Below the pieces are notes generated by a model that was not told the origin of the DNA, ran no database searches, and was given only the letters and a program-made list of their open reading frames with translations. A program made the translations under genes and the position numbers. This document shows, piece after piece, positions 3,834 to 58,557 of a DNA stretch of 64,000 nucleotides. The stretch lies in assembly GCA_951406725.2 (NCBI GenBank), contig OX597841.1, forward strand, positions 9,362,001 to 9,426,000, written 5' to 3'. How positions within the stretch are numbered: position 1 is the first letter of the stretch; the number at the start of each line of letters is the position of its first letter. The stretch is from Octopus vulgaris (lineage: Eukaryota).

Positions 3834-3845
3834 GCCGAAATAGCT
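3834..3845 (-). promoter_or_regulatory. Primer-binding site of A1 (AGCTATTTCGGC)
   Basis: Directly follows the 5' LTR end (...ACTACA); identical to the family-B PBS; complementary to tRNA-Phe nt 1-12. Confidence 0.8.
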
Positions 3846-4156
3846 TGTAGTATGAAAAGAGTACAACAGAACAAGGAAAGGAATGGAAATGTAATTGGGT
3901 CTTACCTGGCCGGAGATGAACTCGGATCGCCTTTAGCCAACTCGCTCGCGTCGTGTCTTCTCGGTGTCTTCGTCGTGTCTGGCGCAACTGGTCAATGCCG
4001 CACGTGCGTTCTGTCTGTCACTTCCGCTTCCGCTCGCGCATGCGCCCTGCAAGACCTGCAAGCCCCATTTCCGCTCCCCCCCCATTCCGTCACACTCCTT
4101 CACCATCACACCACATATACAAGCATATACATACGTGCTTACATAATACATATATG

Positions 4157-4377
4157 CATTTCTTTACTACCCACAAGGGGCTAAACACAGAGGGGACAAA
4201 CAAGGACAGACAAACGGATTAAGTCGATTATATCGCCCCCAGTGCGTAACTGGTACTTAATTTATCGACTCCGAAAGGATGAAAGGCAAAGTCGACCTCG
4301 GTGGAATTTAAACTCAGAACGTAACGGCAGACGAAATACGGATATGCATTTCGCCCGGCGTGCTAACGTTTCTGCCA
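4157..4377 (-). mobile_element. tRNA-derived SINE (GGCGGCGAGCTGGCAG-head family)
   Basis: Same sequence as the copies at 18089..18502, 20647..20872 and 31513..31818; B-box-like GAGTTCAAATTCC in family members. Confidence 0.85.
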
Positions 4378-4448
4378 CGCACATCATCTTGGTAGTCTAC
4401 GCACATGCACAGAAGCAGACGCAACAAAACGCGCCTGCGAGCGCGCAT

Positions 4449-5858
4449 GCACTGACACACACAGCAATCAAACACACACTGACACACACAGCAATCAAAC
4501 ACACACTGACACACACAGCAATCAAACACACACTGACACACACAGCAATCAAACACACACTGACACACACAGCAATCAAACACACACTGACACACACAGC
4601 AATCAAACACACACTGACACACACAGCAATCAAACACACACTGACACACACAGCAATCAAACACACACTGACACACACAGCAATCAAACACACACTGACA
4701 CACACAGCAATCAAACACACACTGACACACACAGCAATCAAACACACACTGACACACACAGCAATCAAACACACACTGACACACACAGCAATCAAACACA
4801 CACTGACACACACAGCAATCAAACACACACTGACACACACAGCAATCAAACACACACTGACACACACAGCAATCAAACACACACTGACACACACAGCAAT
4901 CAAACACACACTGACACACACAGCAATCAAACACACACTGACACACACAGCAATCAAACACACACTGACACACACAGCAATCAAACACACACTGACACAC
5001 ACAGCAATCAAACACACACTGACAACACACAATCAAACACACACTGACACACACAGCAATCAAACACACACTGACACACACAGCAATCAAACACACACTG
5101 ACACACACAATCAACAACACACACACAGCAATCAAACACACACTGAGCAATAAACACACACTGACACACAGCAATCAAACACACACACTGACACACACAG
5201 CAATCAAACACACACTGACACACACAGCAATCAAACACACACTGACACACACAGCAATCAAACACACACTGACACACACAGCAATCAAACACACACTGAC
5301 ATACACAGCAATCAAACACACACTGACACACACAGCAATCAAACACACACTGACACACACAGCAATCAAACACACACTGACATACACAGCAATCAAACAC
5401 ACACTGACATACACAGCAATCAAACACACACTGACATACACAGCAATCAAACACACACTGACACACACAGCAATCAAACACACACTGACACACACAGCAA
5501 TCAAACACACACTGACACACACAGCAATCAAACACACACTGACACACACAGCAATCAAACACACACTGACACACACAGCAATCAAACACACACTGACACA
5601 CACAGCAATCAAACACACACTGACATACACAGCAATCAAACACACACTGACATACACAGCAATCAAACACACACTGACACACACAGCAATCAAACACACA
5701 CTGACACACACAGCAATCAAACACACACTGACACACACAGCAATCAAACACACACTGACATACACAGCAATCAAACACACACTGACATACACAGCAATCA
5801 AACACACACTGACACACACAGCAATCAAACACACACTGACACACAGCAATCAAACACA
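4449..5858 (+). repeat. 27-bp minisatellite (CACACTGACACACACAGCAATCAAACA)n, about 50 copies
   Basis: Period visible as the 9-codon repeat HTLTHTAIK; mirror at 51832..53420. Confidence 0.97.
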
Positions 5859-6392
5859 CGTTAGTAGATTGACTCAAAATGCGTGTCTGGCGGGATGATG
5901 AAGACAGAGAGATAGAGAATGACTGAAGGAGACCAATAGATACTCACATCTACACACACACAAGCACAAACACACACGCACACATACACACTCACAAACA
6001 CACACACACTCACGCACACATACACACACACACACACATCAAGCACAAACACACACGCACACATATACACTCACAACAAACACACACACACACATACACA
6101 AACTAACAACAAACATACACACTCACGCACACACATCAAACAAACACACACGCACACATACACACTCACAACAAACATACGCACACTCACGCACACATAC
6201 ACACACTCACAACAGACATACACACTCACGCACACACATCAAACACAAACACACACGCACGCATACACACTCACAAGAAACACACACACACACACATACA
6301 CACTCACACACACACACGCACACACACATTTGCAACCAATGTTTTATGTGTTCTTATGATTGCAACAATAGTGGTAAGTATAAGCGGAATAG

Positions 6393-6477: not shown

Positions 6478-9400
6478 TGTAGTGTGAACGGTGAAAAGAG
6501 TACAACAGAAAAAGGGAGAATGGAAATGTAATTGGGTCTTACCTCGTCGGAGATGAACTTGGATCGCTTTTAGCCAACTCGCTCGTCTGGTCCCTTCGTC
6601 CTGTCTTCCGCAACTCCTCAATGCTGCACGTGCGTTCTGCCTGTCACTTCCGCTTCCTCCGGCGCATGCGCCCTGCAAACCCTGCAAGCCCCACTTCCGC
6701 TCTCCCCCATCCGCCACACTCCTTCACCACACACCACACGCCCCCCTGATCTACAGATCACTGAACCGGCTTCCTCACTCACTCCCGCACCTGAAACTGG
6801 TTTCATAATCAGCCAACCAGGGAGGAGGGTGCCGCTCCCTCTGTGGTCGCAGTGCGACCCTAGGACTTGTACCTGGCGTGTTGCTGCCGACCTCGTCATC
6901 CTGTCTGTTGTTTTCGTCTTGCCCACTGCTGCTGGCCCTATCCTCTGGGGCATGGACAATCCTCCGTATGTCCAAAACGTGGCGTGGCATACCATCGACC
7001 GAGATGTTATTCTTTGAATTTACGGAGGTTATTGTCCCCTTTCCCCATTGCGATGTACACCGTGCGTTTGGGGGTTTTACCCAGACTTCCTCCCCGACCT
7101 GCACGAAGGCGTGCTCTTCCTCTGCCCCGGGTCGCTTTGATGTAGTACACGGATGCCTCCACTCGTACCTGAATATTGCCCTGTGTGGCACCGACTCCTC
7201 AGCCTGTCCTGATCTGGGCACATATTGTACCAAAACACGGCCTCGACTGGTGAAATGTGACCCCTCTCTGCCATGGCCTTGATGGTACGATGATGCCTTT
7301 CCACCACCCCGTTTCCACTTGGCCGGTATGCCGCCCTGAAGAAGCGGTTGACCTTCCACTCATCAAGCATTTCTCTCAGCACATCCGAGCGAAATGCAGT
7401 GCCGTTGTCCAGAAGCAGTTCATCCACGGGGCCTCGTTCCAGGAATATCTCATTCAACACTTTCACAATTTCTTCTGCGGTCCCCGACTTCATCTCCCTT
7501 CACCCGCCCCGGTCTGCAGTCAATCATTGAGAGGTATGTCCCCTGCCGGTAGTGTGTTATGTCCACCGCCAGTCGTCTCCAGTCCTGGTCCACTGGAATA
7601 CTTCCCGCTTCATGCACGACCGGAGCAGGGTCGATGGACTGGCACCTGTCACAACTGCTAACCACTCTCTGCACGCTCTGTCTTGTTACGTCGGAGTCAA
7701 CTTTTCTGGCTAGGAACAATGTCCTGTCCACACCCATGTGATGCATGGTGTGTAGTCTCCGTAACTCCGAGTCGCTCAGACGGCATACTGCAGCTACATC
7801 CTGCTTCGCATTCCTCTGGCACCTTCAACCAGGCTCGCTTTACCCTGGTCAGGACGTCTGCCCTGTTCTTCTCAGAAGGCACAAAGATCACGCTCAGCTT
7901 CAGATTGAACTCAGTGGTTAGTTCACGCAGTATTCCTAATCGACGCTTTACCAGGATCTCTGCAGCCCCTTTGGTCCGCACCCTCCTCTCATCGGTGATG
8001 ACTGCTGTCGCCCAACCAAGTACAGTGGCCGAATCAGTCCTGATTTCTATGGTGTGCAACCCCCACTTCAAGGCTAGGTTCACCCCCTTCAGCACGGCAT
8101 CCAACTCCGCCACGTTGATGTGATTGCAGTCATCCATCTTCCTGAGCCAGGCCGCATCTTCCACCGTGACACCTCCCACTTCCAAGACGACCCCTATTGC
8201 GATGCTACTGGCGTCACACCATACGATCCCGCTCTTTGATTTGGGAACATACCAGCTGCCCCTCACCGGGTCCTCTGCTCCTACTCTGACCAAGACTTCC
8301 TGCATCATGTCGATTGTCCTCTCCCCCACTTTATCATTCCACTTCACTCCTTCGGCTCGTCTCTTGATGAAGCTACATGCTGTCCGGAGCCAGCCTGCAA
8401 TCGGGTAGTGTCCCACCAGCTTCCCACACACAGAGAACAGTTCCCGTCTACTCATGCTGGCGCCCAGTTCAGGGACCTCATTCCCTCGCCGGAACACCAA
8501 GGCGCCGGCCTTGTCTCTCCATAGCTTGAGGCCCAGTGCAGCACCTCCCTCCATAGCCACAATTGCTCGCAACGTCAGCTGTAGTCCCTGCACCACAATC
8601 TGCGCATCCGTAACCCCTTCGCAGTGCACTTCTCTTCCGTCGACTGCCCTAACACTGCTTCCTCCACTCCACGTGGAGTGGAGGAAGCAGTGTTAGGGAG
8701 TGGAGGAAGCAGTGTTAGGGCAGTCGACGGAAGAGAAGTGCACTGCGAAGGGGTTACGGATGCGCAGATTGTGGTGCAGGGACTACAGCTGACGTTGCGA
8801 GCAATTGTGGTTGGTCACTTGGTGGACGAGATTGACGTGGTGATGGGGATGGATGCAATCACCCGCTTTGGAGGTGTCACCGTCAACGAGGCTGGCGTCA
8901 CGTTTGGGTTAGCGGGGAAACCGTGTAGGGCGAGACCACGCACCGACGACAACCGTGAGGAAAAGGATGCGGCGCACACCATTGAAGACCAGGATTTTCG
9001 GGTTGTCTTTGATGGCAAGAGGTGGACAGTGGAGTGGCACTGGAAGGGAGAGCCCCCGATGTTAAAGAATAAAGTGGGCTGCTAGCAGCATACTCTAAAA
9101 GGAGATGCCAGAAGTGAGTTCGAGGGGGAAGTGGAGCGGTGGATTAAGGAGGGCATACTGATCCCTTGGGAAAAAGAAGAGAGCGGAGTCCTGCCACTGA
9201 TGGCGGTGATACAGCCCACAAAGCATAAGGTCAGGCCAGTGCTTGACTTCCGAGAGCTGAATGACCACGTGTCGTGTCATACAGGCGGCGAGGCCACGTA
9301 TGTCTGCGGAGACACCTTGCGAGAGTGGAGGCAGACGACGGGGCCTCCACGATTGTCGATTTAAAGTCGGCATACCTTCAGGTGCATGTGGTTGAGAAAT

Positions 9401-10428
9401 TATGGAAGTACCAGCTCGTCAGGTATAGGGGCCGGACGTACTGTCTGACCAGGTTGGGATTCGGGCTGAATTCAGCGACGAAGATTATGGCAACAATTCT
9501 CAAGGCAATCCTGGGGAAGGTGGACAGAGTAAAAAGGGCCACCAATTCATACATCAACGACATTCTGGTGGATGCCACTTCCGTAGTCATCAGGGTCGTT
9601 GTACAGCCCGTGTCCACCAGGGCTCGCGACATCTTCCCCTTCACCAGAATGTCGACCACAGGTAGCGATGATAAACGCGCCGCTACTAATCCAAAGGGAC
9701 GACTACCGGCGCAGTAGTCTCCCGCGGTCCGTTTCCCTGCAGACACTCGCTGGCTACATGCCCTGGCTCTCGACACCGGTAGCAAATCACCTCAGGCTTG
9801 GGCGACGCGCAGTCACGGACCATGTGTGGACCTTGGCACCGGAAACACTGTCCTATGAACAGTCGCACACGTTCTTTCCTCAGCCCCTCTCCGCTGCTCC
9901 TAGCTGGGCCACTTTTCGACGTTACAGTCGCTGCTACCGACGTCAACCTGCTGCACGAAACCAGTACACGTGCCCGCGACATGATATCGGCCATCGGCAT
10001 CGAACGCACGTTCGGGAGCTTCTGTAGCTTGACCGACATGATGTCGGGAAAGCCGGTCACGAACGCTAACCTAATCGTCCGTTCTAGCGACTCTCCTGTG
10101 GGATGACGTCAGCAGCAGGACGTCAGCCAGCGGGGTGCGTTGACCGGAAGCTGGGGCAAGCGGAAGGGGTCAGCCGTCAAGCGCGCGCAGGGGGCGGAAG
10201 TTGACCTTTCCAACGTGGGTTGACAAGACGTGCGAGGTGACAAGACGTGCGAGGTGACAAGACGTGACAAGACGTGCGAGGAAGTCGCTAAAGGGTTTGG
10301 GGCTAGCAGCTGCTATCGTTAGTGTTCGGGTAGGGGCTGTGAGGAAGGACCAGCCATCTCGGGAGGATCTCCGTCACCACGAAGAGAAGGTAGGTGCCTC
10401 TATATTCAAATCGCACACACTCACTACA

Positions 10429-10440
10429 AGCTATTTCGGC
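10429..10440 (+). promoter_or_regulatory. Primer-binding site of family B (AGCTATTTCGGC)
   Basis: Directly abuts the 5' LTR; absent after the 3' LTR; conserved with family A. Confidence 0.8.
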
Positions 10441-10473
10441 AGTTCGTAAACATTCACATTTTTTTTCAACACG

Positions 10474-11238
10474 ATGTCTGCAAAAATTAGGATCGCCAGT
10501 GACGTCGTCAGACCTTTTAACGGCGAAGGCGATGTAGTGGCCTGGATTCAGAAAATCAGGCTGGTGGCGAGACTGCAGGGCATAAGCGACGTGGCGAGTC
10601 TTATGGCGCTGTATTTGGAAGGGAGTGCGTTGTCACTTTACCTAGAGATGGATGTCGAAGAACGGCTCTGCGATGAGAATATAGAGCGGCGCTTGTGTGA
10701 CGCATACACGGAATGCGAGTACACAGCTTTCGCTAAGCTAGGTGCAATCAGGTGGACGGGAGGCCAGGTGGATGATTTTGCATCGGAAGCTAGAAGGCTA
10801 GCGACTCTGGCCGGGTTTGCCGGAGAAGAACTGGAGAGAGCAGCCCGACTGGCGTTCGTGAATGGGTTCCCCGACGATGTAGGGATTCACCTACAACGAC
10901 TGCCCGGGGTCAAAAAGATGCCATTGAGCGAACTTGTAACTCATGCTCGCGCGTTGACGAGACACTCTGGGCGGAAGGCGATAGCGATGGCGGTGACGGA
11001 GGCGCGTAAAGACGGACGACGTCCCGAGAAAGAGGTACAGAAGCCCACCGTGCAACGAGAGCGGCCGTTCTCAGGACGGTGTTTTAGATGCCAGGGACCG
11101 CACATGGCGCGGGACTGTACGCAGCCGGGGCCCGTTTGCTATCGATGCAGGCAGACAGGGCACATTGCCCGTGATTGCGGCCGGGGAAACGACCGCGGGG
11201 AAGTTGCTGCCTCTCGAACTTTCCCCTCAAACGAGTAG
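10474..11238 (+). CDS. gag: Gag with two zinc knuckles (family B)
   Basis: 254-aa ATG-initiated ORF; CFRCQGPHMARDC and CYRCRQTGHIARDC. Confidence 0.95.
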   Translation: MSAKIRIASDVVRPFNGEGDVVAWIQKIRLVARLQGISDVASLMALYLEGSALSLYLEMDVEERLCDENIERRLCDAYTECEYTAFAKLGAIRWTGGQVDDFASEARRLATLAGFAGEELERAARLAFVNGFPDDVGIHLQRLPGVKKMPLSELVTHARALTRHSGRKAIAMAVTEARKDGRRPEKEVQKPTVQRERPFSGRCFRCQGPHMARDCTQPGPVCYRCRQTGHIARDCGRGNDRGEVAASRTFPSNE

Positions 11239-38270: not shown

Positions 38271-39342
38271 ATTGAGAACAGCAACTCTTCCTCTGCCTAC
38301 CACTCAAGCCATGCATCTGAAACCGCACAACTGGCAATATTTTGCCGACCCCCATATGCGTAGTACCCCAGTATTATTGGATTACCATAAGGCGGCGAGC
38401 TGGCAGGAACGTTAGCACGCCGGCCAAAATGCCTTGCGGTATTTCGTCCGCCGCTGCGTTCTGAGTTCAAATTCCGCCGGGGTCGACTTTGCCTTTCATT
38501 CTTTCGGGGTCGATAAACTAAGTACCAGTTACGCACTGGGGTCGTTATAATCGACTTAATCCGTTTGTCTATCCTTGTAGTTGTCCGCCGCTACGTTCCC
38601 CAAATTCTGTGCTTTTAGCCCTTCGGGGTGTAGTAAAGTTATAAATAATCCGGTATCCTTGTTTGTTTTCATCCGCCGCTACGTTCTGAGTTCAAATTCC
38701 GCCGAGGTCGACTTTGCCTTTCATCCTTTCGGGGTCAATTAAATAAGTACCAGTTACGCACTGGGGTCGATATAATCGACTTAATCAGTTTGTCTGTCCT
38801 TGTTTGTCCTCTCTGTGTTTAGCCCCTTGTGGGTAGTAAAGAAATAATTATTGGATTACCATGATTCTATTGGTCCGTTCATAGTTCTTGAGGAGGGGAC
38901 TCTGTGGGGGATGGTCTTGCCGGTTGTCGAAAATCACCCCCTCACCGACAACTAAACTGGTAGAATCACAAGTTCAGTTGTCGGCGACAAAAACATGCAG
39001 CGGATTGCACTGATTCTGGGTTAACAACAGGATTCTCGCCTCACATAATTGCACGTATACAAATGTGTGTGTGTGTGTGTTTAGGTATGTTCTATGTACG
39101 TACTTACGTACGTACGTACGTACGTATGTATGTATGTATGTGTGTGTGTGTGTGTATATATATATATAAATATATAATACATATGCATATGTATGCATAT
39201 ATTATTATGCTATAGACATACTCATATACGCACACACACACACACAAACATACATACATACATGCATGCATGCATACATACATACATACATATATACATA
39301 CATACATACATGCATGCATACATACATACATACATACATACA

Positions 39343-39373
<31 letters not shown>

Positions 39374-39375
<2 letters not shown>

Positions 39376-41643
39376 TATGGCTGCCCCCTCGTTATCGAGT
39401 ATGGCCATTGCACGAAGCTTAACTGTTATTGGTGCTGTGATCGAATGTGACTTTTTAGCCCAGCTAAAGATCTACAATGTCTTGTACAGAATTGGCAGCT
39501 AAAACCTTTACCGGTAATAGCCGGCTGTAGTTGTAACTGGGCTTCATGTACCTTTGCATGTCGTTTAAGTCCACCTGCCGAATTACACTCTCTTCCACAT
39601 GCCCGACAGATATGATTAGTATGGTGTGTTACACCACATTGGCTCATGCATACATACATACATACGGAAGACAGTAGGGGGCGATTTGAGGGAGTTTTGG
39701 CTGCTATTTCTGTCAGATCTGTCTTACATATAGATGTTTCTCACATTTGTTCATACATGCATATATACACACATAAGTCGTGAGTATGATTTGGAGGGAC
39801 GTTTGGCTGCTTTTTCTGCCAGGTCTACCCTAATATAGAGAGGTTTCCCTCATTGGCTCATTATGGCTGCCCCCTCGTTATCGAGTATGGCCATTGCACG
39901 AAGCTTAACTGTTATTGGTGCTGTGATCGAATGTGACTTTTTAGCCCAGCTAAAGATCTACAATGTCTTGTACAGAATTGGCAGCTAAAACCTTTACCGG
40001 CAATAGCTGGCTGTAGTTGTAACTGGGCTTCATGTACCTTTGCATGTCGTTTAAGTCCACCTGCCGAATTACACTCTCTTCCACATGCCCGACAGATATG
40101 ATTAGTATGGTGTGTTACACCACATTGGCTCATGCATACATACATACATACGGAAGACAGTAGGGGGCGATTTGAGGGAGTTTTGGCTGCTATTTCTGTC
40201 AGATCTGTCTTACATATAGATGTTTCTCACATTTGTTCATACATGCATATATACACACATAAGTCAGTGAGTATGATTTGGAGGGACGTTTGGCTGCTTT
40301 TTCTGCCAGGTCTACCCTAATATAGAGAGGTTTCCCTCATTGGCTCATTATGGCTGCCCCCTCGTTATCGAGTATGGCCATTGCACGAAGCTTAACTGTT
40401 ATTGGTGCTGTGATCGAATGTGACTTTTTAGCCCAGCTAAAGATCTACAATGTCTTGTACAGAATTGGCAGCTAAAACCTTTACCGGTAATAGCCGGCTG
40501 TAGTTGTAACTGGGCTTCATGTACCTTTGCATGTCGTTTAAGTCCACCTGCCGAATTACACTCTCTTCCACATGCCCGACAGATATGATTAGTATGGTGT
40601 GTTACACCACATTGGCTCATGCATACATACATACATACGGAAGACAGTAGGGGGCGATTTGAGGGAGTTTTGGCTGCTATTTCTGTCAGATCTGTCTTAC
40701 ATATAGATGTTTCTCACATTTGTTCATACATGCATATATACACACATAAGTCAGTGAGTATGATTTGGAGGGACGTTTGGCTGCTTTTTCTGCCAGGTCT
40801 ACCCTAATATAGAGAGGTTTCCCTCATTGGCTCATTATGGCTGCCCCCTCGTTATCGAGTATGGCCATTGCACGAAGCTTAACTGTTATTGGTGCTGTGA
40901 TCGAATGTGACTTTTTAGCCCAGCTAAAGATCTACAATGTCTTGTACAGAATTGGCAGCTAAAACCTTTACCGGTAATAGCCGGCTGTAGTTGTAACTGG
41001 GCTTCATGTACCTTTGCATGTCGTTTAAGTCCTCCTGCCGAATTACACTCTCTTCCACATGCCCGACAGATATGATTAGTATGGTGTGTTACACCACATT
41101 GGCTCATGCATACATACATACATACGGAAGACAGTAGGGGGCGATTTGAGGGAGTTTTGGCTGCTATTTCTGTCAGATCTGTCTTACATATAGATGTTTC
41201 TCACATTTGTTCATACATGCATATATACACACATAAGTCAGTGAGTATGATTTGGAGGGACGTTTGGCTGCTTTTTCTGCCAGGTCTACCCTAATATAGA
41301 GAGGTTTCCCTCATTGGCTCATTATGGCTGCCCCCTCGTTATCGCGTATGGCCATTGCACGAAGCTTAACTGTTATTGGTGCTGTGATCGAATGTGACTT
41401 TTTAGCCCAGCTAAAGATCTACAATGTCTTGTACAGAATTGGCAGCTAAAACCTTTACCGGTAATAGCCGGCTGTAGTTGTAACTGGGCTTCATGTACCT
41501 TTGCATGTCGTTTAAGTCCACCTGCCGAATTACACTCTCTTCCACATGCCCGACAGATATGATTAGTATGGTGTGTTACACCACCCCCAGTGGCCAGGTT
41601 CTCACTCATCTCTCTCGCTTTATGACTACGAAGTCTATTCCTG
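39374..41643 (-). repeat. Five-copy ~487-bp array of RTE-derived double C2H2 zinc-finger units
   Basis: ORFs ending at 39426, 39912, 40399, 40886 and 41373; the first unit extends further 5' (RNRLRSHKAREMSENLATGG). Confidence 0.92.
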
Positions 41644-43818
41644 TATGTATGTTTGTGTGCATGCATGTATTATATATTTATATATGTATACACACATAGA
41701 TACATACATACATGTATATACACACACATACATACATACATGCATACACACCCATACCTACATACATACATACATACACACCCATACATACATGCATACA
41801 TACCCATACATGCATGCATACATACATACATACATACATACATACATACATACATTCATACATACATACATACATACATGCATGCATACGTACATACATA
41901 CATACATACATACATACATACATTCATACATACATACATACATGCATGCATACATACATACATACATACATACATACATACATTCAAACATACATACATA
42001 ACTGCATGCATACGTACATACATACATACGTACATACATACATACATACATACATACATACATACATGCATACACACCCATACCTACATACATACATGCA
42101 TACATACCCATACATGCATGCATACGTACATACATACATGCATGCATGCATGCATACATACATACATACATCTATACATACATACATACATACATACATA
42201 CATACATACATACATACATGCATGCATACATACATACATACATACATACATGCATGCATGCATACATACATACATACATACATACATACATACATACATA
42301 CATACATACATACATACATACATACTCACAAACGCATACACATGTCATATGTGTGTATTGAATAAATTTGAATAATTGTGTGTATGTGTGTGTGTGTGCA
42401 TTTGCGTGTGTGTTTGTGAGTGTGTGCGCGCGCGCGCGACAGAAAGACAGACAGAGAATGAGATTGAAGCATCTACTTTCTAATCCAAAGTAATATAATT
42501 GTTTCCATATTGTGTTTATGACGTCACAATATCGTTGACGTTTTTTTTTTTTTTTTCGTGAGATTTGGTTTGAAAACTCTTCAGTCTCTTTCAACCTTTC
42601 TCGGTGATTAGAAGCTAGGGAATGTGTGCGCCAGGGGGCATACCCAGACATCTGAAGACTAGGGTGAAGTAACAGACATCTTCAGCTTGTTTTTGATGTT
42701 TGTGAGGTTGTTTTATGCACCTTTGAGTTCTTAAGCACCCAATCTAACATGCTGGTTGGTAGCATAACATAGTGACAAGGTTTCCGGTAGCATTCCTGTA
42801 CCCGGATGAACTGTTAACCAGGCCATTTCAGGAGAGAAAACCTGGGGGTTCCAACCAGAAACATATACCTCACTCGCAATACATTCAATAATATATTTTA
42901 TTATAAATAGTGAGAAAGTAAAGAATGTGACGTTAAATAATAAAGATGATGGAAACGAAATACTGCTTCCTCAAGTTATAATCATTCGTGTGTCAAGAAA
43001 ATATACTTATAAACATGGTAAGTATTTAAATGAATATAAAAAATATTGTCTGTTGCTATTAAACTGTTTGAAGATCTTTTTAAGAGATTTTTTTTTATAG
43101 TAAAGCAAAATAAATTCTTCATTAGATGTTCGATATTCTGCTTAAACACTATTTTTTGTTCCTTCTCGAGTCATGCCTGGCTCATGAGGGTCGGTTTCCC
43201 TCTTTCATTGGCGTATAGGTTCCCTACCTGGACAGGATACCGGTCTCTCGCATGTGAGCTGCTAGATGCAGGAGGAAAGTGTGAGAGGAAGTTGTGGCGA
43301 AAGAATCAGCGAAAGTTAACTATTTCATTACCTTCTGCCGGAGCCACGTGGTGCTTATGTGTTTTGCTCATAAACCATAAACACACTGTGGTGTGTGGTG
43401 AAGGAGTGTGACGGATGGGGGAGAGCGGAAGTGGGGCTTGGGGAGAATGAGATGGACTGGGCAACAGGTGGACGTGTTTGCCAATGAGCTTAGAAGACTG
43501 GCTAAATTGGCGGGTTATGAGGGAGTGTAGTGAGTGTGTGCGATTTGAATATAGAGGCACCTACCTTCTCTTCGTGGTGACGGAGATCCTCCCGAGATGG
43601 CTGGTCCTTCCTCACAGCCCCTACCCGAACACTAACGATAGCAGCTGCTAGCCCCAAACCCTTTAGCGACTTCATCGCACGTCTTGTCACCAGCACAACC
43701 CACGTTGGAAAGGTCAACTTCCGCCCCCTGCGCGCGCTTGACGGCTAACCCCTTCCGCTTGCCGCACCCCGCTGGCTGACGTCCTGCTGCTGACGTCATC
43801 CCACACGCCACCCTGATC

Positions 43819-46698
43819 TTAAAGATCACAATCTCTCCGCTCCATGTTGTAGTCTACCATCCAACCGGGAGAACGCCTTGCTCGTCGAGATCTTCTCAAG
43901 CTGGGCTCCTCACTCTCCCCCTCTCCCGAATCATCGTCCGTCGAAGCAACAATCCTGCGAAGGTCCAAGACATGTCGTGGTGTGCCATCTACGGATACGT
44001 TGCTTCTGGAATTGATCGCCGTCACCGTTCCTCTGCTCCATTGAGACGTACAGCGCGCCTTTGGTGGCTTGACCCAGACTTCCTCCCCTATTTTCACGCG
44101 AACGGGTCCCTTCTCTTCCTCGTGACCCTCTGGCGCTTTGCTCGGGTGCCTCCATTCATATTTGAACACAGCTCTCTGCGGCACAGATTCCTCAGCCTGT
44201 CCGGATCGGGGAGACAAGTTGTACCAAAAAACTGCTTCAAGCGGCGAAATGTGCCCTCTTTCCGCTATGGCCTTGACTGTCCGATGGTACCTCTCCACGA
44301 TCCCGTTACCGCCCGGCCTATACGCTGCTCTGAACAAGCGTCGCACGTTCCACCGATCAAGCATAACCCTCAATGCTTCCGAACGAAACGCCGCCCCGTT
44401 GTCCATCAGTAGTTCTTCCACGGGACCTCTCTCTAAAAATATCCCGTTCAGGATCTGCACGATCTCGTCAGCAATGCCCGATCTCAACTCCCTCCAAATG
44501 GCCAGCCGGCCCGGCCCACAGTCGACCATGGAGAGGTACATTCGCTGACGGTAGTGTGTCACATCCACAGCTAGTCTTTTCCAGTTCTGCTCCACGGAAA
44601 GGCTTCCCTGTTCATGCCCACACGGAGCAGGGTCGATGGACTGACACCTGTCGCAGCTCCCGACCACCTTCCGGACGCTTCTCCTAGTGACGTCAGCATC
44701 AATTTTCTTCGCCAGATACAGGGTCCTGTCCACACCCAGGTGATGCATAGCGTGCAGTTTCTTCAGTTCAGAGTCATCCAACCGACACGCCGCAGCTATC
44801 CCTTTCCGGGCCTCCTCCGGTTCTTCCAACCACGCCCTTTTCATCCTGGTCAGTACGTCCGCCTTGTTTTTCTCCGAAGGCACGAAGACCACGTTCAGCT
44901 TCAGTCCGAATTCGGCGATCAATTCACCTAGAACTCCTAGACGGCGCTTCACTAACATCTCCGCAGCACCTTTCGTCCGCACTCTCCTGTCACCGGTGAT
45001 CACCGATCCTACCCAGCCAAGCACAGTGGCCGAATCCGTCCGCATTTCAATCGTGCGCAGCCCCCATTTCAAGGCCAAGTTCACCCCTTTCAGCAGCGCG
45101 TCTAATTCGGCGACATTGATGTGGTTGAAATCGTCTGCTTTCCGAAGCCAGGCGGCGTCCTCCACCGCAGTGCCTTCGATTGCCAACACCACCCCTATCG
45201 CTATACTGCTAGCATCACACCAGACGGTCCCGCATTTCGTCTTGGGCACGTACCAGTTCCCCCTGACCGGGTCTTCCGCTCTTGTCCTCTCTAGGATCTC
45301 CTGCATCATCGCCACCGTCCCTTCTCCCACCTTGTCGCCCCACCTCTCTCCTTCTGCTCGTCTCTTGGTGTAACTACACGCCGTGCGCAGCCATCCAGCG
45401 ATCGGGTAGTGACCGACCAACTTCCCACACACCGAGAACAGCTCTCTCCTGCTGACGCTGGAACTCAGCTCTGGGATTTCATTTCCTCTCCGGAACACCA
45501 ATTCACCTGATCTATCTCTTCGCAGCTTCAGCCCCAGCGCGGCTCCCCCTTCAATCGACTCCGGTGGCTTAGCAACCAGTCCGAACTTCTCCAGATGTCT
45601 CACTACCTCGTCGGCTGGCACTACAGTTTCGTCCACCAAAATGTCGTCAATGTAGGAGCTGGTGGCCTTCCTAATCTTGCCGTCTTTCCCTAGGACGGAC
45701 CTAAGCACTGCCGCCATGATCTTCGGAGCGGAATTCAGCCCGAAACCCAGCCTGGTTAGACAGTACGTCCGGCCCTTGTACCGCACCAGCTGATATCGCC
45801 ATAGTTTGTCGCTCACATGGAGCTGCAAGTATGCCGATCTCAAGTCGACAATCGTCGCTGCCTCAATCGACTGTCTCCACTTACGTAATGCCTCACCACA
45901 AACGTCTGTCGCCTCACCTCCCGTGTGACACGATATGTGCTGGTTTAGCTCCCTGAAGTCCAGCACCGGTCTGACTTTTCCCTTCGTAGGCTGCACCACC
46001 GCCATCAGGGGTAGCACTCCGCCCGCTACCTCCTCCTTCCAAGGGACAAGGACCCCTTCCTCGATCCACCTCTCCACCTCGTCTTCAAACCCAACCCTGG
46101 CGTGGCCTTTCAGGGTATGCTGGTAACAGCTCACCCTGTTCTCCAGTGTCGGGGGCTCGTCCTTCCATTTCCACTCTATCGTCCACCGCTGACCATCGAA
46201 CGCCGTCTGGAAGTCTTTGTCCTCGATGGTGTAAGCGGCGCAGTCCCTCGTGGGGCTCTGCTCCCTCTGGCGATCCTGACTCGCAGTGCACGACGCCCCC
46301 ACGCTTCCGAACGTGACCTCATTTCCCACAACACTGACGCCACCGAGGCAGTTGATGGCGTCCATCCCCATCACCACATCAACTCCATTTATCACGCGTT
46401 CGGCCACAATTGCCTGTAGCCTTAGCGTCGCGCCGCGCACCACTATCTCTACCTTGCTGCTGCCTCTGCAACGGATTTCGCTGCCGTCGACCGCCCGGAC
46501 ACTACACACCCCGTTCCATTCCTTCGTCACCCTCGAAGTCACCAGGGTGGTCGTACAGCCCGTATCCACAAGGGCCTTGAACGTCTCCCCCTCGGCCTCC
46601 ACGTCAATCAATGGCAGCGTCTCCAATAGCGCCTCTACTCGTTTGAGGGGAAAGTTCGAGAGGCAGCAACTTCCCCGCGGTCGTTTCCCCGGCCGCAA
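43819..46698 (-). CDS. pol: Uninterrupted Pol (protease, RT, RNase H, integrase), reached by -1 frameshift
   Basis: 959-codon open frame with DTG, YIDD, RNase H D-E-D-D, H-x3-H...C-x2-C and D,D(35)E-type motifs. Confidence 0.96.
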   Translation of the reverse strand: MRPGKRPRGSCCLSNFPLKRVEALLETLPLIDVEAEGETFKALVDTGCTTTLVTSRVTKEWNGVCSVRAVDGSEIRCRGSSKVEIVVRGATLRLQAIVAERVINGVDVVMGMDAINCLGGVSVVGNEVTFGSVGASCTASQDRQREQSPTRDCAAYTIEDKDFQTAFDGQRWTIEWKWKDEPPTLENRVSCYQHTLKGHARVGFEDEVERWIEEGVLVPWKEEVAGGVLPLMAVVQPTKGKVRPVLDFRELNQHISCHTGGEATDVCGEALRKWRQSIEAATIVDLRSAYLQLHVSDKLWRYQLVRYKGRTYCLTRLGFGLNSAPKIMAAVLRSVLGKDGKIRKATSSYIDDILVDETVVPADEVVRHLEKFGLVAKPPESIEGGAALGLKLRRDRSGELVFRRGNEIPELSSSVSRRELFSVCGKLVGHYPIAGWLRTACSYTKRRAEGERWGDKVGEGTVAMMQEILERTRAEDPVRGNWYVPKTKCGTVWCDASSIAIGVVLAIEGTAVEDAAWLRKADDFNHINVAELDALLKGVNLALKWGLRTIEMRTDSATVLGWVGSVITGDRRVRTKGAAEMLVKRRLGVLGELIAEFGLKLNVVFVPSEKNKADVLTRMKRAWLEEPEEARKGIAAACRLDDSELKKLHAMHHLGVDRTLYLAKKIDADVTRRSVRKVVGSCDRCQSIDPAPCGHEQGSLSVEQNWKRLAVDVTHYRQRMYLSMVDCGPGRLAIWRELRSGIADEIVQILNGIFLERGPVEELLMDNGAAFRSEALRVMLDRWNVRRLFRAAYRPGGNGIVERYHRTVKAIAERGHISPLEAVFWYNLSPRSGQAEESVPQRAVFKYEWRHPSKAPEGHEEEKGPVRVKIGEEVWVKPPKARCTSQWSRGTVTAINSRSNVSVDGTPRHVLDLRRIVASTDDDSGEGESEEPSLRRSRRARRSPGWMVDYNMERRDCDL

Positions 46699-47399
46699 TC
46701 ACGGGCAATGTGCCCTGTCTGCCTGCATCGATAGCAAACGGGCCCCGGCTGCGTACAGTCCCGCGCCATGTGCGGTCCCTGGCATCTAAAACACCGTCCT
46801 GAGAACGGCCGCTCTCGTTGCACGGTGGGCTTCTGTACCTCTTTCTCGGGACGTCGTCCGTCTTTACGCGCCTCCGTCACCGCCATCGCTATCGCCTTCC
46901 GCCCAGAGTGTCTCGTCAACGCGCGAGCATGAGTTACAAGTTCGCTCAATGGCATCTTTTTGACCCCGGGCAGTCGTTGTAGGTGAATCCCTACATCGTC
47001 GGGGAACCCATTCACGAACGCCAGTCGGGCTGCTCTCTCCAGTTCTTCTCCGGCAAACCCGGCCAGAGTCGCTAGCCTTCTAGCTTCTGATGCAAAGTCG
47101 TCCACTTGGCCTCCCGTCCACCTGATTGCACCTAGCTTAGCGAAAGCTGTGTACTCGCATTCCGTGTATGCGTCACACAAGCGCCGCTCTATATTCTCAT
47201 CGCAGAGCCGTTCTTCGACATCCATCTCTAGGTAAAGTGACAACGCACTCCCTTCCAAATACAGCGCCATAAGACTCGCCACGTCGCTTATGCCCTGCAG
47301 TCTCGCCACCAGCCTGATTTTCTGAATCCAGGCCACTACATCGCCTTCGCCGTTAAAAGGTCTGACGACGTCACTGGCGATCCTAATTTTTGCAGACAT
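46635..47399 (-). CDS. gag: Gag (family B)
   Basis: 254 aa, same protein as 10474..11238. Confidence 0.95.
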   Translation of the reverse strand: MSAKIRIASDVVRPFNGEGDVVAWIQKIRLVARLQGISDVASLMALYLEGSALSLYLEMDVEERLCDENIERRLCDAYTECEYTAFAKLGAIRWTGGQVDDFASEARRLATLAGFAGEELERAARLAFVNGFPDDVGIHLQRLPGVKKMPLSELVTHARALTRHSGRKAIAMAVTEARKDGRRPEKEVQKPTVQRERPFSGRCFRCQGPHMARDCTQPGPVCYRCRQTGHIARDCGRGNDRGEVAASRTFPSNE

Positions 47400-50300
47400 C
47401 GTGTTGAAAAAAATGTGAATGTTTACGAACTGCCGAAATAGCTTGTAGTGAGTGTGTGCGATTTGAATATAGAGGCACCTACCTTCTCTTCGTGGTGACG
47501 GAGATCCTCCCGAGATGGCTGGTCCTTCCTCACAGCCCCTACCCGAACACTAACGATAGCAGCTGCTAGCCCCAAACCCTTTAGCGACTTCCTCGCACGT
47601 CTTGTCACGTCTTGTCACCTCGCACGTCTTGTCACCTCGCACGTCTTGTCACCTCGCACGTCTTGTCAACCCACGTTGGAAAGGTCAACTTCCGCCCCTT
47701 CCGCGCGCTTGACGGCTGACCCCTTCCGCTTGCCCCAGCTTCCGGTCAACGCACCCCGCTGGCTGACGTCCTGCTGCTGACGTCATCCCACAGGAGAGTC
47801 GCTAGAACGGACGATTAGGTTAGCGTTCGTGACCGGCTTTCCCGACATCATGTCGGTCAAGCTACAGAAGCTCCCGAACGTGCGTTCGATGCCGATGGCC
47901 GATATCATGTCGCGGGCACGTGTACTGGTTTCGTGCAGCAGGTTGACGTCGGTAGCAGCGACTGTAACGTCGAAAAGTGGCCCAGCTAGGAGCAGCGGAG
48001 AGGGGCTGAGGAAAGAACGTGTGCGACTGTTCATAGGACAGTGTTTCCGGTGCCAAGGTCCACACATGGTCCGTGACTGCGCGTCGCCCAAGCCTGAGGT
48101 GATTTGCTACCGGTGTCGAGAGCCAGGGCATGTAGCCAGCGAGTGTCTGCAGGGAAACGGCCCGCGGGAGACTACTGCGCCGGTAGTCGTCCCTTTGGAT
48201 TAGTAGCGGCGCGTTTATCATCGCTACCTGTGGTCGACATTCTGGTGAAGGGGAAGATGTCGCGAGCCCTGGTGGACACGGGCTGTACAACGACCCTGAT
48301 GACTACGGAAGTGGCATCCACCAGAATGTCGTCGATGTATGAATTGGTGGCCCTTTTACTCTGTCCACCTTCCCCAGGATGGCCTTGAGAATTGTTGCCA
48401 TAATCTTCGTCGCTGAATTCAGCCCGAATCCCAACCTGGTCAGACAGTACGTCCGGCCCCTATACCTGACGAGCTGGTACTTCCATAATTTCTCAACCAC
48501 ATGCACCTGAAGGTATGCCGACTTTAAATCGACAATCGTGGAGGCCCCCGTCGTCTGCCTCCACTCTCGCAAGGTGTCTCCGCAGACATCGTGGCCTCGC
48601 CGCCTGTATGACACGACACGTGGTCATTCAGCTCTCGGAAGTCAAGCACTGGCCTGACCTTATGCTTTGTGGGCTGTATCACCGCCATCAGTGGCAGGAC
48701 TCCGCTCTCTTCTTTTTCCCAAGGGATCAGTATGCCCTCCTTAATCCACCGCTCCACTTCCCCCTCGAACTCACTTCTGGCATCTCCTTTTAGAGTATGC
48801 TGCTAGCAGCCCACTTTATTCTTTAACATCGGGGGCTCTCCCTTCCAGTGCCACTCCACTGTCCACCTCTTGCCATCAAAGACAACCCGAAAATCCTGGT
48901 CTTCAATGGTGTGCGCCGCATCCTTTTCCTCACGGTTGTCGTCGGTGCGTGGTCTCGCCCTACACGGTTTCCCCGCTAACCCAAACGTTACGCCAGCCTC
49001 GTTGACGGTGACAGCTCCAAAGCGGGTGATTGCATCCATCCCCATCACCACGTCAATCTCGTCCACCAAGTGACCAACCACAATTGCTCGCAACGTCAGC
49101 TGTAGTCCCTGCACCACAATCTGCGCATCCGTAACCCCTTCGCAGTGCACTTCTCTTCCGTCGACTGCCCTAACACTGCTTCCTCCACTCCACGTGGAGT
49201 GGAGGAAGCAGTGTTAGGGCAGTCGACGGAAGAGAAGTGCACTGCGAAGGGGTTACGGATGCGCAGATTGTGGTGCAGGGACACAGCTGACGTTGCGAGC
49301 AATTGTGGCAATGGAGGGAGGTGTTGCACTGGGCCTCAAGCTATGGAGAGACAAGGCCGGCGCCTTGGTGTTCCGGCGAGGGAATGAGGTCCCTGAACTG
49401 GGCGCCAGCATGAGTAGACGGGAACTGTTCTCTGTGTGTGGGAAGCTGGTGGGACACTACCCGATTGCAGGCTGGCTCCAGACAGCATGTAGCTTCATCA
49501 AGAGACGAGCCGAAGGAGTGAAGTGGAATGATAAAGTGGGGGAGAGGACAATCGACATGATGCAGGAAGTCTTGGTCAGAGTAGGAGCAGAGGACCCGGT
49601 GAGGGGCAGCTGGTATGTTCCCAAATCAAAGAGCGGGATCGTATGGTGTGACGCCAGTAGCATCGCAATAGGGGTCGTCTTGGAAGTGGGAGGTGTCACG
49701 GTGGAAGATGCGGCCTGGCTCAGGAAGATGGATGACTGCAATCACATCAACGTGGCGGAGTTGGATGCCGTGCTGAAGGGGGTGAACCTAGCCTTGAAGT
49801 GGGGGTTGCACACCATAGAAATCAGGACTGATTCGGCCACTGTACTTGGTTGGGCGACAGCAGTCATCACCGATGAGAGGAGGGTGCGGACCAAAGGGGC
49901 TGCAGAGATCCTGGTAAAGCGTCGATTAGGAATACTGCGTGAACTAACCACTGAGTTCAATCTGAAGCTGAGCGTGATCTTTGTGCCTTCTGAGAAGAAC
50001 AGGGCAGACGTCCTGACCAGGGTAAAGCGAGCCTGGTTGAAGGTGCCAGAGGAATGCGAAGCAGGATGTAGCTGCAGTATGCCGTCTGAGCGACTCGGAG
50101 TTACGGAGACTACACACCATGCATCACATGGGTGTGGACAGGACATTGTTCCTAGCCAGAAAAGTTGACTCCGACGTGACAAGACAGAGCGTGCAGAGAG
50201 TGGTTAGCAGTTGTGACAGGTGCCAGTCCATCGACCCTGCTCCGGTCGTGCATGAAGCGGGAAGTATTCCAGTGGACCAGGACTGGAGACGACTGGCGGT

Positions 50301-51831
50301 GGACATAACACACTACCGGCAGGGGACATACCTCTCAATGATTGACTGCAGACCGGGGCGGGTGAAGGGAGATGAAGTCGGGGACCGCAGAAGAAATTGT
50401 GAAAGTGTTGAATGAGATATTCCTGGAACGAGGCCCCGTGGATGAACTGCTTCTGGACAACGGCACTGCATTTCGCTCGGATGTGCTGAGAGAAATGCTT
50501 GATGTGTGGAAGGTCAACCGCTTCTTCAGGGCGGCATACCGGCCAAGTGGAAACGGGGTGGTGGAAAGGCATCATCGTACCATCAAGGCCATGGCAGAGA
50601 GGGGTCACATTTCACCAGTCGAGGCCGTGTTTTGGTACAATATGCCGCCCAGATCAGGACAGGCTGAGGAGTCGGTGCCACACAGGGCAATATTCAGGTA
50701 CGAGTGGAGGCATCCGTGTACTACATCAAAGCGACCCGGGGCAGAGGAAGAGCACGCCTTCGTGCAGGTCGGGGAGGAAGTCTGGATAAAACCCCCAAAC
50801 GCACGGTGTACATCGCAATGGGGAAAGGGGACAATAACCTCCGTAAATTCAAAGAATAACATCTCGGTTGATGGTATACCACGCCACGTTTTGGACATAC
50901 GGAGGATTGTCCATGCCCCAGAGGATGGGGCCAGCAGCAGTGGGCAAGACGAAAACAACAGACAGGATGACGAGGTCGGCAGCAACACGCCAGGTACAAG
51001 TCCTAGGGTCGCACTGCGACCACAGAGGGAGCGGCACCCTCCTCCCTGGTTGGCTGATTATGAAACCAGTTTCAGGTGCGGGAGTGAGTGAGGAAGCCGG
51101 TTCAGTGATCTGTAGATCAGGGGGCGTGTGGTGTGTGGTGAAGGAGTGTGGCGGATGGGGGAGAGCGGAAGTGGGGCTTGCAGGGTTTGCAGGGCGCATG
51201 CGCCGGAGGAAGCGGAAGTGACAGGCAGAACGCACGTGCAGCATTGAGGAGTTGCGGAAGACAGGACGAAGGGACCAGACGAGCGAGTTGGCTAAAAGCG
51301 ATCCAAGTTCATCTCCGACGAGGTAAGACCCAATTACATTTCCATTCTCCCTTTTTCTGTTGTACTCTTTTCACCGTTCACACTACACACACACATCCCC
51401 CGGTCTGAGATTCGAACCCGCGAATTCTCGACCGCGAGTCCGCTGTTCTAACCACTAGGTTATGTGCCTCCACTATTCCGCTTATACTTACCACTATTGT
51501 TGCAATCATAAGAACACATAAAACATCGGTTGCAAATGTGTGTGTGCGTGTGTGTGTGTGAGTGTGTATGTGTGTGTGTGTGTGTTTCTTGTGAGTGTGT
51601 ATGCGTGCGTGTGTGTTTGTGTTTGATGTGTGTGCGTGAGTGTGTATGTCTGTTGTAAGTGTGTGTATGTGTGCGTGAGTACGTGTATGTTTGTTGTGAG
51701 TGTGTATGTGTGCGTGTGTGTTTGTGCTTGTGTGTGTGTAGATGTGAGTATCTATTGGTCTCCTTCAGTCATTCTCTATCTCTCTGTCTTCATCATCCCG
51801 CCAGACACGCATTTTGAGTCAATCTACTAAC

Positions 51832-53420
51832 GTGTGTTTGATTGCTGTGTGTGTCAGTGTGTGTTTGATTGCTGTGTGTGTCAGTGTGTGTTTGATTGCT
51901 GTGTGTGTTTGATTGCTGTGTGTGTCAGTGTGTGTTTGATTGCTGTGTGTGTCAGTGTGTGTTTGATTGCTGTGTGTGTCAGTGTGTGTTTGATTGCTGT
52001 GTGTGTGTGTGTGTTTGTGTGTGTTTGATTGCTGTGTGTCAGTGTGTGTTTGATTGCTGTGTGTGTCAGTGTGTGTTTGATTGCTGTGTGTGTCAGTGTG
52101 TGTTTGATTGCTGTGTGTGTCAGTGTGTGTTTGATTGCTGTGTGTGTCAGTGTGTGTTTGTGCTGTGTGTGTGTGTTGTTTGATTGCTGTGTGTGTCAGT
52201 GTGTGTTTGATTGCTGTGTGTGTCAGTGTGTGTTTGATTGCTGTGTGTGTCAGTGTGTGTTTGATTGCTGTGTGTGTCGTGTGTGTTTGATTGCTGTGTG
52301 TGTCAGTGTGTGTTTGATTGCTGTGTGTGTCAGTGTGTGTTTGATTGCTGTGTGTGTCAGTGTGTGTTTGATTGCTGTGTGTGTCAGTGTGTGTTTGATT
52401 GCTGTGTGTGTCAGTGTGTGTTTGATTGCTGTGTGTGTCAGTGTGTGTTTGATTGCTGTGTGTGTCAGTGTGTGTTTGATTGCTGTGTGTGTCAGTGTGT
52501 GTTTGATTGCTGTGTGTGTCAGTGTGTGTTTGATTGCTGTGTGTGTCAGTGTGTGTTTGATTGCTGTGTGTGTCAGTGTGTGTTTGATTGCTGTGTGTGT
52601 CAGTGTGTGTTTGATTGCTGTGTGTGTCAGTGTGTGTTTGATTGCTGTGTGTGTCAGTGTGTGTTTGATTGCTGTGTGTGTCAGTGTGTGTTTGATTGCT
52701 GTGTGTGTGTCAGTGTGTGTTTGATTGCTGTGTGTGTCAGTGTGTGTTTGATTGCTGTGTGTGTCAGTGTGTGTTTGATTGCTGTGTGTGTCAGTGTGTG
52801 TTTGATTGCTGTGTGTGTCAGTGTGTGTTTGATTGCTGTGTGTGTCAGTGTGTGTTTGATTGCTGTGTGTGTCGTGTGTGTTTGAGTGTGTGTTTGATTG
52901 CTGTGTGTGTCAGTGTGTGTTTGATTGCTGTGTGTGTCAGTGTGTGTTTGATTGCTGTGTGTGTCAGTGTGTGTTTGATTGCTGTGTGTGTCAGTGTGTG
53001 TTTGATTGCTGTGTGTGTCAGTGTGTGTTTGATTGCTGTGTGTGTCAGTGTGTGTTTGATTGCTGTGTGTGTCAGTGTGTGTTTGATTGCTGTGTGTGTC
53101 AGTGCATGCGTTTGATTGCTCGCAGGCGCGTTGTTTTGCGTCTGCTTCTGTGCATGTGTGTAGACTACCAAGATGATCTGTGTGTGTCTGTGTGTGTTTG
53201 ATTGCTGTGTGTGTCTGTGTGTGTTTGATTGCTGTGTGTGTCTGTGTGTGTTTGATTGCTGTGTGTGTCAGTGTGTGTTTGATTGCTGTGTGTGTCAGTG
53301 TGTGTTTGATTGCTGTGTGTGTCAGTGTGTGTTTGATTGCTGTGTGTGTCAGTGTGTGTTTGATTGCTGTGTGTGTCAGTGTGTGTTTGATTGCTGTGTG
53401 TGTCAGTGTGTGTTTGATAT
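51832..53420 (-). repeat. 27-bp minisatellite (mirror copy)
   Basis: (TGTTTGATTGCTGTGTGTGTCAGTGTG)n. Confidence 0.95.
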
Positions 53421-58161: not shown

Positions 58162-58557
58162 GTGTGTAGGTTCTACCTGAGAGGTTCCTGCTTGCATGGA
58201 AAGCAAGGTGCAGGCTGCCGCTTTGCACATCGGGGACCCTGCCACAGAGACACGAAGCAGATGGACAAACCATCAACACAAGGAAAAAGGATGGACCACG
58301 CACCACCTGCCCCAAAGCGGAGGTACGCAGATGTTGTGCATGCCACAAACCGCCAACATGATGTTGTCGAAAGGGCAGCTGCTGAGCAACAATCTTTTTT
58401 GTGCATGGCACAAAAGATTGTACAGCAGCTGACCTGGCTTCATCAAACCCAAGCCCGCAGGTGGGACTACCCACTATATACAAGACCACCACAGCAAACA
58501 GACCCAGGATGGACACCGCCGGCAACAACGTACACCTCACCTCGATGCTCCTACTGA
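58162..58557 (+). pseudogene. LINE ORF1 C-terminal part with CCCH zinc finger (upstream part frameshifted)
   Basis: CRFYLRGSCLHGKQGAGCRFAH; overlaps the start of ORF2. Confidence 0.6.

Follow-up and report, generated by a model that had tools for sequence, protein, structure and literature searches.

Inverted duplication and nested LTR retrotransposons

The window—the whole 64,000-nucleotide stretch of Octopus vulgaris DNA that we analysed—is for the most part taken up by an inverted duplication (1-57612), centred near 28 kb and with arms that are about 94-100% identical. It harbours LTR retrotransposons of two families, here called A and B. Element B, about 4.2 kb in size and laid out as LTR-gag-pol-LTR, is inserted within a family-A copy, with a 4-bp target duplication. 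The relevant features are:

10097-10428, plus strand: element B 5' LTR, TG...CA, 332 nt, delimited by alignment to the 3' LTR, which stops exactly at 10428
10388-10394, plus strand: splice-donor-like motif inside the element B LTR, 41 nt before the primer-binding site (PBS)
10429-10440, plus strand: element B PBS, which complements nt 1-12 of mature tRNA-Phe(GAA) exactly and directly abuts the LTR
10474-11238, plus strand: element B gag, 254 aa, two CCHC zinc knuckles
11184-11190, plus strand: G-GGA-AAC heptamer where gag and pol overlap, predicted site of -1 frameshifting
11175-14053, plus strand: element B pol (PR-RT-RNase H-IN), two reading frames in this copy (11175-12671 and 12500-14053)
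14051-14066, plus strand: element B polypurine tract (PPT) region, before the 3' LTR
14067-14346, plus strand: element B 3' LTR, TG...CA, then the 4-bp duplication CTCC
43526-47792, minus strand: inverted duplicate of the whole of element B, comprising 5' LTR (47444-47792), PBS (47432-47443), gag (46635-47399), pol (43819-46698, 959 codons) and 3' LTR (43526-43805)
3834-4115, minus strand: family A 5' LTR (3846-4115) and PBS (3834-3845), interior truncated and rearranged
53645-53839, plus strand: family A LTR end with its PBS (53828-53839), in inverted duplicate
6492-10096, minus strand: second family-A copy (3' LTR and part of pol), which hosts the element B insertion and has lost its own PBS

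The heptamer is read here as a putative slippery site for -1 frameshifting. The window also contains a LINE-type (non-LTR) element with endonuclease and RT domains (58386-61510), as well as tandem arrays of 27-bp and about 487-bp repeats (4288-5900, 51756-53300, 15900-17600 and 39294-41584).

Because the window is largely an inverted duplication, its four PBS sites represent two insertions, not four. The same B-in-A insertion recurs elsewhere in the genome, on C28, C27 and C18 (L336-L338), assigning the window to a family of segmental duplications. The LTRs of families A and B are unalignable, yet the two families share 76% identity in RT-RNase H, and we found hybrids that combine a family-A-type LTR with a family-B-type gag (L343, L345 and L355; a B-type pol was checked in L343). 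The LTR pairs of these hybrids are 99-100% identical, and the hybrids reflect recent recombination between families having one PBS in common. The original prediction had listed four sites in two families with unrelated LTRs and clearly diverged gag/pol; the LTRs indeed do not align, but the insertions number two and the families are kin.

The PBS complements the 5' end of host tRNA-Phe

At all four sites, the same 12-mer directly follows the LTR-terminal ...ACTACA. That it lies flush with the LTR end is evident from the two LTRs of element B, whose similarity extends from TG to CA and breaks off at precisely the nucleotide that precedes the PBS. The PBS does not start with TGG, leaves no spacer after the LTR, and lacks the canonical complementarity to a tRNA CCA end. 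The initial claim of a flush complement to tRNA-Phe nt 1-12 is thereby borne out by every site and by the LTR alignment.

The predicted 5' end of the host tRNA was confirmed as well. A 15-nt extension of the PBS complement returned 94 matches in the genome, as compared to 0 for the control, and ARAGORN called tRNA-Phe(GAA) at 10/10 of the fetched match loci, with the genes starting at the match. Pairing of tRNA-Phe at the PBS is limited to nt 1-12. A shared thirteenth base had been proposed to pair with a U at position -1 of the pre-tRNA, a suggestion that we discard: across 30 loci of the octopus genome itself ('own' loci hereafter), the base after the 12-mer varies (A in 18, G in 5, C in 5 and T in 2), and the base before G1 is A in all ten distinct host tRNA-Phe genes. 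Since the thirteenth base is not conserved, the match ends at tRNA G1, that is, at the mature end. A separate observation concerns C18 (30147732-30157146), where about 45 tRNA-Phe 5'-end matches form a tandem array with 200-bp spacing.

Conservation within the host genome

Genome-wide, the junction of LTR end and PBS gave 279 matches versus 3 for the reversed pattern, and gag or pol lay downstream in 27 of the 30 loci fetched. When own loci were chosen by Gag, the PBS was exact in 26/30 and carried one mismatch in 4/30; this set comprises the best 30 of 150, all near B and with the window's two copies among them. Target-site duplications were sought in 20 own-genome stretches and proved to be exact 5-bp repeats in ten and repeats with one mismatch in one; two of the others share the window's 4-bp site, and seven were unreadable.

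Each of the nine own elements tested carries a splice-donor-like motif (AG/GTAAG or AG/GTAGG) 39-69 nt upstream of the PBS, kept though the LTRs are otherwise unalignable. It might suppress polyadenylation in the 5' LTR or give rise to an RNA devoid of the PBS; no spliced joint at this donor appeared in element-covering contigs from four sequencing runs. Fossils of a longer primer—an LTR end followed by a complement that reaches tRNA nt 14—were sought, with 0 found. We likewise considered, and rejected, the possibility that the PBS is copied from a minor host isodecoder: that variant showed no enrichment, with two genome copies versus two of another single transition, the latter counted among the first 100 of 261 matches listed.

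PBS variants across the lineage

To look beyond the host genome, we assembled 73 foreign loci picked by Pol alone (66 from metagenomes and 7 from GTDB). The gag 5' region is missing from 25 of them, which makes these uninformative, and 48 are informative in that they include the gag 5' region or the PBS. In 42 of the 48, the PBS complement reads GCC-NNNN-TAGCT; four differ by one or two letters, and two have none. Searching with the strict pattern yielded 40 exact sense matches in the 73 loci, 0 antisense matches and a mean of 0.19 in shuffled sequences. The two pattern-fitting loci outside these 40 have a changed LTR end.

PBS variation is almost confined to the positions opposite tRNA nt 4-7. 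Named by these four letters, the variants are TAGA (14 loci), GCGA (10), GAAA (9) and GTGA (4), and more rarely CGGA (2), GGGA (1), GTGT (1) and GGAA (1), counts that are not independent because several loci are duplicates, three GAAA loci stem from one contig and the TAGA loci form one clade. Four of the eight variants, accounting for 35/42 loci, equal real tRNA 5' ends. GAAA is the 5' end of the host tRNA-Phe, and GCGA that of the planarian tRNA-Phe(GAA) as given in supplementary Table S1 of PMC7962491. TAGA corresponds to the start of a eukaryote-type tRNA-Phe in an IMG/VR contig, a match that is weak taken alone, since with five GCC-starting Phe genes in the set and seven variants it would arise by chance in about 13% of cases. 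CGGA corresponds to the 5' terminus of one copy of host tRNA-Lys(CTT), and some members may therefore use Lys, so that the primer would not always be Phe; the own genome held 0 PBSs of the Lys type. The remaining four variants (7/42 loci) had no match among the eukaryotic tRNAs compared.

The proposed covariation of the PBS with host tRNAs in Pol homologues receives partial support. The common pattern and the four variants fit it; a match between a PBS and the tRNA of its own host is available for this genome only, the planarian and IMG/VR tRNAs being matches in kind and not host pairs. In a quick maximum-likelihood tree of 53 rows, from which five loci with short RT matches were excluded, well-supported branches force at least five changes for GCGA and at least four for GAAA. 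The presence of the same variants on distant branches is as expected if the PBS were refitted to each host; alternatively, it is possible that the recurring variants descend from one ancestral variant lost several times.

IMG/VR returned no Pol relative, and gag or Pol was found in 0/80 loci picked there by pattern. Three GTDB bacterial MAGs hold contigs with these LTR elements (L176-L182), one of the contigs containing a tandem array. These contigs are probably eukaryotic contamination; a eukaryote-type tRNA-Phe was detected in 0/3 of the MAGs concerned.

Element proteins and classification

The elements display the full set of LTR-retrotransposon traits, namely direct TG...CA LTRs, a target duplication, appropriately positioned PBS and PPT, a CCHC Gag, and a Pol that combines protease, RT and RNase H with a DDE integrase. 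The Pol domains follow in the order protease, RT, DUF7047, RNase H and DDE integrase, a Ty3/gypsy-like PR-RT-RH-IN arrangement without a tether domain. Catalytic and zinc residues of RT, RNase H and integrase are invariant in 23/23 aligned Pol relatives, and so are the D-E-D-D residues of RNase H, a conservation that any LTR element would be expected to show and that does not imply cleavage of an RNA duplex. The predicted structural model aligned with the CaMV RT-RH structure 8r0s over 478 columns (TM 0.66, 15% identity). DUF7047 (residues 416-620 of P0001) separates the catalytic core of RT from RNase H; the model shows it as helical, and it likely represents the RT thumb.

All 23 Pol proteins matched RVT_3 and DUF7047, and none matched a gypsy-type RNase H (Pfam RT_RNaseH or RT_RNaseH_2) at E 0.01, while gypsy elements of the host match PF17917 strongly. 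The BEL/Pao hallmark Peptidase_A17 (PF05380) was likewise found in 0/23. Membership in Ty1/copia is ruled out by the integrase, which is C-terminal and not upstream of RT. Troyka and the Kuafuorterviruses form a deep-branching animal LTR lineage that also has PR-RT-RH-IN; however, Troyka elements have CG...CG ends and 3-bp duplications and Kuafu RTs an I/V/LADD motif, whereas the elements described here have TG...CA ends, 5-bp duplications and YIDD, which rules out membership there too. We therefore leave the lineage unclassified: its domain order is gypsy-like, but it is without the gypsy or BEL Pfam hallmarks. Its RNase H motifs are closer in appearance to those of DIRS-type RNase H than to gypsy, and the lineage may deserve a classification of its own.

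Argonauta, Aplysia, Petrolisthes, Oratosquilla, Macrosteles and Hydra supply the named Pol relatives, a range that extends over molluscs, crustaceans and an insect as well as Hydra; Argonauta is the closest among them at 67%. A profile search returned 1322 cluster representatives at E up to 1e-30, a number that may include sister groups. One sister group (P0432, P0435, P0440 and P0446) has longer proteins of about 1340-1420 aa, with PR-RT-RH in common.

Candidate primer sources within the elements

In agreement with the original prediction, the LTRs hold no unspliced copy of the primer; none arises over GT..AG junctions either. Across nine complete own elements, the best unspliced LTR match to the primer had 3-6 mismatches of 12 in every case, and the best match over all GT..AG junctions had 2-3. 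Foreign loci gave the same picture, with at least three mismatches in 40 of the 41 that were testable (up to 600 nt upstream scanned); the match in the single exception is located 327 nt upstream and probably falls outside the LTR. ARAGORN called no tRNA gene in 57 metagenome loci, and Rfam reported no family in the window and none above the gathering score in five loci. In one locus (L085, about 1860-1920), a tRNA-like stretch with A- and B-box-like words sits between PBS and gag and is called by neither ARAGORN nor Rfam. We also looked for additional conserved pairing to the remainder of the tRNA and found none.

Comparison with known priming systems

A plant-wide survey from 2019 distinguishes three primer types for LTR elements: a whole tRNA, an anticodon-cut half tRNA and a self-primer (PMC6317226). 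The PBS of the present lineage fails the defining test of all three, and the priming proposed for it is closest to Tf1 in its geometry and to half-tRNA priming in the origin of the primer. Canonical Ty3/gypsy elements and retroviruses have the same LTR-gag-pol-LTR layout, TG...CA ends, 5-bp duplication and PR-RT-RH-IN order, and IAP is also primed by tRNA-Phe (PMC7472051). Canonical elements pair with the tRNA 3' end, however, and the PBS of ERVs lies 2-4 nt from the LTR (PMC7472051), whereas TGG and spacer are both missing here.

Half-tRNA priming, as in the Ty1/copia lineages Osser, Bryco and Bianca, likewise draws on a cleaved fragment of a host tRNA and not on its CCA end; there, the cut falls in the anticodon stem and the fragment amounts to about half a tRNA (PMC6317226). 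Here, in contrast, the match to nt 1-12 would imply a cut in the D stem and a wholly paired fragment; the tRNA is that for Phe, and by its domain order, PR-RT-RH-IN, the lineage stands apart from copia. Half-tRNA priming is also used by Drosophila copia and Ty5; to our knowledge, the mechanism by which such primers are cut is still open.

Tf1/Tj1 and Tf1/sushi elements have in common with what is proposed for the present lineage a short primer (11 nt versus 12 nt here), taken from the very 5' end of an RNA and paired with the PBS over its full length (PMC7175516, PMC4600332). The RNase H of Tf1 cuts between bases 11 and 12 of the paired RNA 5' end (PMC7175516). Because the PBS complement here lies at a tRNA 5' end and not in the element's LTR, any primer cut would act in trans. 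The Pol, furthermore, is not of the Tf1/gypsy RNase H type.

Proposed priming mechanism

On sequence evidence, the lineage possesses a real, lineage-wide, non-canonical PBS that points to a primer made up of the first 12 nt of a tRNA. Throughout this broad group, the PBS reads as the complement of tRNA nt 1-12, with both ends fixed. The 12-bp duplex has a computed stability of -18.7 kcal/mol, against -8.8 for the acceptor and -3.8 for the D helix that would be displaced, and its greater strength makes strand invasion plausible. The geometry suggests an extendable 3'-OH at about U12; since the LTR ends at U12, where DNA synthesis would begin, the remaining tRNA would have to be removed. By analogy with Tf1, the element's RNase H may cut the RNA duplex at the LTR edge, in trans. 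Plus-strand synthesis would then copy the fragment and run off at G1, which would explain both the sharp G1 edge and the refitting of the PBS to the host tRNA. Retroviruses copy their primer into the PBS during second-strand synthesis (PMC7472051). Two nucleotides separate the G-run of the PPT from the TG, so 2 nt may be removed by the integrase, which would place the end of the primer at nt 10-12.

That minus-strand synthesis is primed by a tRNA fragment of nt 1-12, cut by the element's RNase H in trans, is the reading we lean towards, at somewhat better than even chances; we favour it over a host-made fragment because the geometry is that of Tf1, with a tRNA replacing the element's own leader. 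Priming by a short 5' tRNA fragment, whether cut by RNase H or made by the host, is a conclusion we hold with considerable confidence. The notion of a 12-nt 5' tRNA-Phe fragment as primer is accordingly well supported by the host match and the variants, with the qualification, raised by the Lys variant, that the tRNA may not always be Phe. More tentatively, and at slightly less than even chances, we put forward the full proposal of a fourth, undescribed LTR priming mode, in a large, unclassified and deep-branching lineage whose RNase H cuts the D stem of a host tRNA after nt 12.

A host-made 5' fragment (tRF-5 or 5' half) might instead anneal to the PBS, after which a host or packaged nuclease would cut its unpaired 3' tail back to nt 12; or a fragment of 12 nt might pre-exist. 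All of the PBS evidence is equally compatible with this scenario, no acceptor stem would need unwinding, and 5' tRNA fragments are abundant in animals, as illustrated by planarian tRF-5s and 5'-tsRNAs (PMC7962491). We nevertheless judge it unlikely, if worth serious attention. The planarian tRF-5 sizes reported are 18, 21 and 24 nt, with shorter ones perhaps unsampled (PMC7962491). In addition, nt 12 falls within the D stem and not in a loop. Many host tRNA cuts, moreover, leave a 3' phosphate, which is not extendable.

Returning to the PBS itself, it is improbable that it merely anchors the 5' end of an intact tRNA, with priming from the freed CCA end or another 3'-OH. The bipartite arrangement of Ty3 provides a model for such a scheme, in which pairing of nt 1-7 would free the 3' acceptor strand and cleavage would be unnecessary. 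Yet the LTR end coincides with PBS position 1, the expected place of the primer 3' end, and no complement of at least 8 nt to the tRNA 3' end region is common to nine own elements, in a comparison where the mature CCA fell outside the scanned sequence.

Still harder to sustain is a primer supplied by some other small RNA, or by the RNA of a tRNA-derived SINE, that carries the 12-mer at its 3' end by chance. The tRNA-Lys-fitting variant does indicate that primer identity is not fixed, and the scan covered a subset of host RNAs; however, the near-restriction of variation to the nt 4-7 positions and the identity of four variants with real tRNA 5' termini argue against a chance match, as does the lack of a tRNA gene or Rfam family in the elements scanned. 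Tf1-type self-priming in cis, possibly through an LTR splice junction, would accord with the flush 12-nt PBS, as in Tf1, and with the splice-donor-like motif, but we consider it largely refuted by the mismatches counted above and by LTRs that become unalignable while the PBS stays unchanged, and give it scarcely any credence.

Implications

The original prediction knew of no account of this priming mode, and our search of the full-text literature with PBS sequences and tRNA-Phe-end phrases likewise found no description of priming by a tRNA 5' end, with Repbase Reports, GyDB, most subscription journals and bioRxiv supplements outside its scope. A Repbase-based study is said to have dealt with unusual gypsy primers, and an earlier description of this priming may exist. 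The motifs searched were absent from the scanned portions of the supplements of PMC2770079, PMC9023262, PMC6238403 and PMC11673190. As PBS-finding tools look for tRNA 3' ends, they likely report such elements as lacking a PBS.

With this lineage, one could test directly whether the RNase H of a retroelement processes a host tRNA in trans, and how tRNA priming relates to self-priming. If the proposal is true, a tRNA would be the substrate, in trans, of the Tf1 reaction, which might connect the two modes of priming. The PBS would then be rewritten in each cycle from the host tRNA, such that the element records the 5' end of that tRNA, and these elements would be fed or blocked by small RNAs of the 5' tRNA fragment type, not by 3' ones.
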